IMG/VR virus record: IMGVR_UViG_2681813161_000005
Direction: 5' to 3' (one strand)
Length of the DNA stretch: 14,994 bases
DNA from: a virus
Taxonomy: Duplodnaviria; Heunggongvirae; Uroviricota; Caudoviricetes
Part shown: positions 11,119 through 11,607 of the stretch, in pieces
How the letters are laid out: the number at the start of each line of letters is the position of its first letter
How positions within the stretch are numbered: position 1 is the stretch's first letter
Made by a program: the position numbers and the translations under genes
Notes under the pieces: model-generated
The model's input: the letters and a program-made list of their open reading frames with translations, nothing else
The model's database searches: none
Told to the model about the DNA's origin: nothing

Positions 11119-11311
11119 GAATCCTCCCGGCCGGGATAATATTGTGAGTAAAATGAGGAGCGGGCTGAAGTCCGGAAGTTACAGGACAATGGCAGAAGAG
11201 AGACGACAGCCCGCAATTCGAAAAAGACCGCGCAGTTGCGCAGAGTGACTACTATGGGGTATTATTCGCCAGCTGAAATATTACTTCACGTTTTATTGTT
11301 TATTCCTTGCC

Positions 11312-11340
11312 GCCCGCGTCTCCCAGCGCGGGCTTTTTTT
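11312..11340 (+). terminator. Rho-independent terminator-like hairpin (+ orientation)
   Basis: GCCCGCG-TCTCCCAG-CGCGGGC followed by T7. Confidence 0.5.
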
Positions 11341-11370
11341 GCCCACAAGAAAGCCCCTCCGGAGAGGGGC
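11341..11370 (-). terminator. Hairpin with weak T-rich tail on the - strand, back-to-back with the + strand terminator
   Basis: GCCCCTC-CGGA-GAGGGGC stem-loop; the - strand continues TTTCTTGTGGG. Confidence 0.35.
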
Positions 11371-11567
11371 TGGAGAGTGGCGCTATGTGCCATTGCATGG
11401 TGCCGGGTGCCTCCCGGTGAATTCAGTACCAGCACCTGAATCCGCGATTATCCCATATACCTACTCGCTGATTGCCCCTCCGCACAGGGGGATTCACCAT
11501 GCCAGTTTCTTTTAACAAACTCCCCGCAAACCAGACAACAGTCAACCGTCTGAATTGTGAGACATTT

Positions 11568-11592
11568 AAAAAAAAAGCCCGCAAAAGCGAGC
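11568..11592 (-). terminator. Rho-independent terminator about 15 nt downstream of argO
   Basis: On the - strand: GCTCGC-TTTT-GCGGGC (one G-U pair) followed by T9. Confidence 0.55.
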
Positions 11593-11607
11593 CAGGGAAA
11601 ATAAGTG

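Follow-up and report, generated by a model that had tools for sequence, protein, structure and literature searches.

At stx2 loci of the Sp5/933W type, argO is followed by stx2AB, the small RNA gene STnc100 (EcOnc27), AsxR and an esterase gene. Convergent sRNAs at this moron site were described by Tree et al. (2014; PMC4104026), who located AsxR 282 bp 3′ and antisense to stx2AB, reported EcOnc27 to be Hfq-dependent, and listed in their Table S2 three Hfq-bound peaks for the Sakai prophage Sp4, namely EcOnc05 (+, ~222 nt) and EcOnc08 and EcOnc21 (-, ~271 nt each). On Northern blots in Sakai the sizes were ~222 nt for EcOnc05 and ~235/247 nt for EcOnc27 (PMC4104026). STnc100 has also been found 75 nt downstream of the stx2 operon in EHEC (PMC12370729), and EDL933 carries 11 copies of it, among which the 191-nt STnc100_4 was verified by Northern blot (PMC5331693). 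PasD/STnc100 has been placed upstream of an esterase (bioRxiv 10.64898/2026.05.13.724894); in this STnc100/PasD lineage, present in lambdoid prophages of Escherichia and Shigella, the sRNA gene lies directly upstream of the esterase, as it does in the locus analyzed here. The EPEC E2348/69 locus was dropped as a comparison for PasD, its copy being interrupted by ISEc13.

The DNA analyzed, a stretch of 14,994 nucleotides deposited as IMG/VR virus record IMGVR_UViG_2681813161_000005 and called the window from here on, was 99.99% identical to JWSL02000004. It was also matched, one IS copy excepted, by CP026811 and CP055124, the chromosomes of the S. flexneri serotype 6 strains 64-5500 and FDAARGOS_714 (PMC9455713), and potC/potD, cobB, nagK and lolCDE adjoin the prophage element. 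The window is an IS-riddled, decayed lambdoid prophage remnant of S. flexneri serotype 6. The region between its tRNA genes and its esterase gene is, with high probability, the standard late-region moron site of a stx-negative lambdoid prophage, situated in this IS-decayed remnant by potC/potD. The architecture is already known (Tree et al., 2014) and is found here in a new host background.

On the minus strand, argO ends at 11608 and the esterase gene begins at 11118, which leaves exactly 489 bp (11119-11607) between them. The initial annotation had described the tRNAs as followed directly by nanS-p, with no stxA or stxB in between, and this description was right in its coordinates and as to the absence of stx, the stx searches returning only noise. 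The tRNA genes are homologues of the three annotated as ileZ, argN and argO in Sakai Sp4 and Sp5. A terminator scan detected six terminator-like sites in 1.2 kb, versus 1.4 ± 1.1 in shuffled sequences, and recovered the three hairpins noted previously (11312..11340 on the plus strand, 11341..11370 and 11568..11592 on the minus strand) together with a fourth at 11243-11228 (-). Each of the three previously noted hairpins terminates its own transcription unit: one the tRNA cluster, one STnc100 and one the antisense RNA. The hairpin of the tRNA-cluster terminator is kept in empty, stx2 and terB loci, and the leader hairpin is conserved in seven aligned related loci and in Sp5. Read along the minus strand, the order is the tRNA cluster with its own terminator, an unoccupied slot, the STnc100/antisense unit, a conserved leader and the esterase gene. 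The features and their positions are collected in Table 1.

Table 1. Features in and around the argO-esterase interval, in window coordinates.
Feature	Position	Strand	Basis and remarks
IS1 transposase ORF	12931-13326		Pfam DDE_Tnp_IS1; IS1 abuts the methyltransferase remnant
DNA methyltransferase remnant	11898..12915	-	Pfam N6_N4_Mtase; lacks its first 41 nt, split into two ORFs
tRNA-Ile2 (ileZ), anticodon CAT	11782-11857	-	ARAGORN (calls it Met), Rfam tRNA
tRNA-Arg TCG (argN)	11698-11774	-	ARAGORN, Rfam tRNA
tRNA-Arg TCT (argO)	11608-11684	-	ARAGORN, Rfam tRNA
tRNA-cluster terminator	11566..11593	-	GC-rich hairpin (stem 11593-11576) followed by 9 T; terminator scan
Unoccupied cargo (moron) slot	11564..11571		blastn breakpoints, base-level junctions
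STnc100-family sRNA gene, 191-nt allele	11341..11531	-	Rfam RF02076; homologue of Sakai Sp4 EcOnc05
STnc100 terminator	stem 11371-11352	-	Terminator scan
Antisense RNA region	11175..11340	+	Homologue of the Hfq-bound peaks EcOnc21 and EcOnc08 (Sakai Sp4); terminator scan, conservation
Antisense RNA terminator	stem 11312-11333, then T7	+	Strong; terminator scan
Leader hairpin, then T5	11228..11243	-	~110 nt upstream of the esterase start codon; terminator scan
nanS-p-type sialate O-acetylesterase, 5′ fragment, 359 aa	10039..11118	-	Pfam DUF1737 and SASA

The interval had been said to hold only three terminator-like hairpins, which understates its content: a full-length STnc100 gene and a convergent antisense RNA gene are present. 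The match to RF02076 scored 139.4 bits against a gathering score of 47 (E = 2.7e-31) and covered model positions 1-206 of 206. When eight STnc100 alleles were aligned, the closing helix and the internal stem-loops were kept, and 6 of the 61 predicted pairs were changed on both sides, in a set of eight sequences with few distinct alleles; pair 150/171, for example, is AU in five sequences and GC in three. In every related locus, whether empty or carrying stx2a, stx2c or terB, and in Sakai Sp4 and Sp5, STnc100 lies directly downstream of the slot. The alleles are mosaic: over window positions 11335-11570 and their homologues, the Stx2a phage LC645409 combines a cargo-type 5′ half with an empty-type 3′ half, which places recombination breakpoints within the sRNA gene. 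The 191-nt allele was considered as a marker of empty slots and rejected, a locus with DUF3927 cargo having it too.

In many E. coli genomes, PGAP places a partial "hypothetical protein" pseudogene antisense to STnc100 (window ~11387-11512, +); Pfam offers no support for it, and an annotation artefact is its most likely explanation. A simple scan detected no consensus sigma-70 promoter inside the interval. Candidates picked by eye, TGnTAAAAG at 11509-11517 (-), a TTAAAT at the slot boundary and TTGCGC-18-TATTAT at 11236-11265 (+), were judged unconvincing. By analogy with the published Northern sizes, the 5′ end of an STnc100-type RNA would be placed near the right slot boundary.

The antisense RNA gene faces STnc100 with its terminator back to back to that of the sRNA, the plus-strand terminator ending at 11340 and STnc100 on the minus strand at ~11341. 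Taking the published coordinates as those of NC_002695.2 at Sp4, an assumption that meets an offset of ~137 nt at Sp5 and has the fit between peak ends and terminators as its one support, the EcOnc05 peak mapped to window 11362-11470, within STnc100, EcOnc08 to 11266-11338 (+), ending at the plus-strand terminator, and EcOnc21 to 11175-11260 (+). Between 11050 and 11650, neither AsxR (RF02703) nor AgvB (RF02702) gave an Rfam match at E ≤ 1, while the same search recovered AsxR in Sp5 at 88 bits. Under permissive Rfam thresholds the antisense region showed only a sub-threshold OmrA-B match (25 bits), driven by the terminator, and by covariance-model search the RNA belonged to no Rfam family. 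It shares position and orientation with AsxR and AgvB, RNAs of 51-60 nt in which some 42 nt at the 3′ side are conserved, but differs from them in sequence.

Given these two genes, it is highly unlikely that the interval is nothing but non-coding spacer, with hairpins that only insulate the esterase from tRNA read-through, as had been proposed. The three to four terminator-like hairpins, enriched over shuffled sequences, are what such a spacer would offer; two of them, however, terminate sRNA genes, and one stands on the opposite strand, where it is unable to stop read-through from the tRNAs. The full-length STnc100 match with covariation is equally at odds with this reading, as is the fact that the homologous Sakai positions yield abundant Hfq-bound RNAs seen on Northern blots. 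Moreover, the 220 bp from the STnc100 terminator to the esterase start were 95% conserved over seven loci, whatever the cargo.

The closest described counterpart is Sakai Sp4. From argO1 to ECs_1088 it has the layout of the window (ileZ1-argN1-argO1, 489 bp, esterase ECs_1088) in a gapless alignment of 96.9% identity, the same 191-nt STnc100 allele (138 bits, versus 139 in the window) and the same back-to-back terminators. Sp4, in E. coli O157:H7, differs in being largely intact, with an AraC-family gene upstream of the tRNAs, whereas the window is a remnant in S. flexneri 6 that is broken by IS elements and lacks Q; the gene upstream of its tRNAs is a truncated methylase, and the esterase downstream of them is disrupted. 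Sp5 and the window are alike in the tRNAs, the argO terminator, the position of STnc100, a convergent RNA abutting the STnc100 terminator, the leader and the esterase start. Sp5 nevertheless differs in three respects: its slot is filled by ~1.33 kb of stx2AB, its STnc100 allele is 206 nt long (208 bits), and its antisense partner is AsxR (RF02703). In locus coordinates, stx2B ends at 2848 and is followed after 74 nt by STnc100 (2923-3128, +) and AsxR (3130-3182, -). The window, by comparison, has no cargo, the 191-nt allele and an antisense sequence outside AsxR/AgvB. Two convergent sRNA genes thus lie between the moron position and the downstream ORF, as Tree et al. (2014) described, and the slot itself contains no moron CDS.

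Breakpoint comparison with related loci showed that the slot is a single point ~40 bp past argO and not the whole 489 bp. In a Stx2a phage, homology extended through the tRNAs to window 11567, was followed by 1,332 bp absent from the window (a 50-bp leader, stx2A, stx2B and 41 bp) and resumed at 11564. The Stx2c prophage had the same breakpoints, with 1332 bp of cargo, and a terB+DUF3927 prophage carried 747 bp between window 11567 and 11571. A locus with DUF3927 alone (~640 bp) shared the right boundary (11572), and on its left the argO terminator was replaced as well. At base level, empty sites read GCGGGC-T8/9-AAATGTCTCAC and the terB locus GCGGGCC-T6-[cargo]-T4-AAATGTCTCAC, whereas stx2 loci terminate in ...GTAATCTGTGTCAC and have AATCTGTGTCAC at the right junction in place of the AAATGTCTCAC of empty and terB loci. 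In the window, the T-run is followed by AAATGTCTCAC, and the slot contains no ORF. The view that this DNA represents a stx-negative relative of the Stx phages was upheld, since in related phages stx2a and stx2c sit between the argO terminator and the rest of the interval, at a point that is unoccupied here.

No remnant of the toxin genes was detected by BLAST in 11119..11607. When the whole window was searched by tblastn with Stx2A and Stx2B from the Stx2a phage (word size 2, E ≤ 100), the best E value was 0.066, in IS copies, and inside the interval nothing fell below E ~10. The 1.35-kb stx2 cassette gave only chance words of 11-16 nt against the window (blastn-short), and no RIP or SLT_beta domain was present in the nine interval-overlapping ORFs of at least 20 aa (Pfam, E ≤ 10). 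The sequence queries were Stx2 only, the case of Stx1 being covered by the Pfam search and by the gapless alignment to stx-free loci. The arrangement of Stx-converting lambdoid phages, with stxA/stxB between the tRNAs and the esterase and lysis genes and Q upstream, was not found in the window.

The interval aligned over 489 of 489 columns, without gaps and at 96.9-97.1% identity, to Sakai Sp4, a second O157:H7 strain, an O55:H7 strain and ST131, all of them stx-negative, as are all the nearest relatives of the interval. The flanks of Stx phages were more distant, with 92-93% identity on the tRNA side and 79-86% downstream. In the O55:H7, ST131 and second O157:H7 loci, an antiterminator and other genes precede the tRNAs, the 489 bp and the esterase; in O55:H7 and ST131, a DNA methyltransferase lies between antiterminator and tRNAs, and holin, lysozyme and lysis protein come after the esterase. 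Phage Nil3 (O157:H7) was colinear through the junction.

A 301-nt query spanning the junction matched 2,836 E. coli records. Among 40 evenly spaced rows of these, the empty junction was found in 14 (single-piece, full-length, 96.7-99.7% identity, O157:H7 strains included) and a DUF3927 cargo of ~620 bp in 11. No other state of the junction is as frequent in E. coli. At least 80% of a 1-kb query reaching from the tRNAs to the esterase was found in one place in 957 of 5,426 genomes, a count that includes loci with small inserts. In some empty-slot loci of E. coli, the STnc100 terminator and the esterase lie ~487 bp further apart (NZ_AP022298.1, locus positions 1714-2470). Prophages that have this arrangement but lack stx are common in E. 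coli and Shigella, so finding the slot empty is no evidence of toxin loss.

It had nonetheless been suggested that this could be a former Stx phage that lost the toxin cassette. A recent, precise deletion of stxAB would agree with the position of the slot, exactly where stx2AB sits in relatives, with the short T-runs beside some cargo, which could mediate a deletion, and with the 3′ half of the interval, which shares 96% identity with one group of Stx2a phages. We consider it very improbable all the same. Neither a toxin remnant nor a scar was found; many stx-negative prophages have the identical junction and 489-bp length in gapless alignment at ~97%; the right junction is AAATGTCTCAC, as in empty and terB loci, and not the AATCTGTGTCAC of stx2 loci; and both the tRNA flank and the STnc100 5′ half belong to the empty type rather than to the Stx type.

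A different derivation would concern the whole class of empty slots, of which an older ancestor might have lost a non-stx cargo, such as terB/DUF3927, by recombination between T-runs, the window having inherited the result. Deletion between the two T-runs of the terB locus (T6-[cargo]-T4-AAATGTCTCAC) would yield the empty sequence. The stx2 and terB cassettes also share their first bases, TATCYGCGCC, and the RBS region CCAAAGGAAC just before the start codon, both absent from empty sites, and a DUF3927-cargo locus carries the empty-type STnc100 allele at 98.2%. Insertion into a T-run, however, explains the junction equally well, and the empty state is the most frequent one, so that an origin of the class by cargo loss seems unlikely to us, less strongly so than the loss of stxAB. 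The empty state in the stx-negative moron site favored here may be ancestral or may stem from an old deletion, the junction alone being compatible with both.

With regard to the cassettes themselves, the common ends of stx2 and terB, despite their unrelated genes, look as if different ORFs had been swapped into one expression frame. It is possible, although less likely than not, that the STnc100/antisense unit is the fixed right-hand anchor of a cargo-exchange slot, the sRNA genes doubling as homology arms by which toxin and other cargo move between prophages; a related possibility, equally tentative, is that selection has preserved nothing intact in the S. flexneri 6 remnant but the sRNA pair and the tRNAs. 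The anchor was proposed because the stx2, terB and DUF3927 cassettes end at one point just upstream of the sRNA unit, because the stx2 and terB cassettes share the leader start and RBS region, and because breakpoints fall inside the sRNA gene. In NZ_CP095137.1, whose slot carries DUF3927 cargo, the antisense-RNA and leader region that elsewhere separates STnc100 from the esterase start has given way to the anti-adapter gene iraM, which lies on the opposite strand (locus positions 1905-2240). This site is a second variable spot in the argO-esterase intergenic region.

Upstream of the tRNAs, homology with intact relatives breaks at 12915, 41 nt into the methylase gene and beside IS1. IS1 occupies approximately 12916-13700, and a lambda-type integrase follows directly (13888-14994). 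No match to an antiterminator was obtained in the window at E ≤ 0.01 when eight antiterminators of different types were used in tblastn. The entire early region, Q included, has probably been removed, with an IS1-mediated deletion as the likely cause. The gene order Q, tRNAs, nanS-p, S, R, Rz that the initial annotation had recognized consequently holds in part: holin, endolysin and Rz are present, interspersed with IS elements, but Q is absent, and an IS1-truncated methylase and then the integrase stand upstream.

By analogy with the published homologues of Sakai, EDL933 and EPEC, both RNAs of the moron site would be transcribed, would bind Hfq and would regulate host mRNAs or sRNAs in trans. 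In a lysogen, without Q, transcription of the tRNAs, of STnc100 and of the antisense RNA would stop at the three terminators. In an intact phage, polymerase modified by Q would pass these terminators and continue into the esterase and lysis genes. As Q and everything upstream have been lost from the remnant, any late-promoter-dependent transcription is gone. The apparently empty spacer at the classic stx position would thus encode two regulatory RNAs, and the main value of the finding lies in correct annotation. Despite its wrecked protein genes, the S. flexneri remnant may remain a source of Hfq-dependent sRNAs and of three rare-codon tRNAs.

Downstream, IS elements interrupt the esterase after 359 aa. 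The fragment is colinear with an intact 616-aa homologue only down to window 10096, and a C-terminal fragment lies within 8043-8579. Next come holin, endolysin and Rz fragments, among which IS629-like copies and an IS66-family transposase are scattered. IS629/IS1203-like copies were located at three places (window 1-1272, 5647-6955 and 8395-9707), and every one of them contains an ALIL frameshift pseudoknot (Rfam RF01497, 116 bits). Holin and endolysin are separated by the copy at 5647-6955, which JWSL02000004 also has but CP026811 and CP055124 lack; this copy is therefore a recent strain-specific insertion. Rz-like spanin ORF fragments were detected downstream of the endolysin (4034-4432, 3550-3825 and 3115-3456, within window 3115-4432), which suggests frameshifts or a rearrangement in the lysis cassette.

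Additionally, a contig from a Nepal gut metagenome (ENA ERZ4567471) carries an identical 359-aa truncated esterase and a 489-bp interval of 99.0% identity. Its upstream region is intact, with Cro, RusA, a 273-aa antiterminator and a methylase ORF of 330 aa. A less decayed version of the prophage, with Q and the upstream genes in place, therefore circulates.
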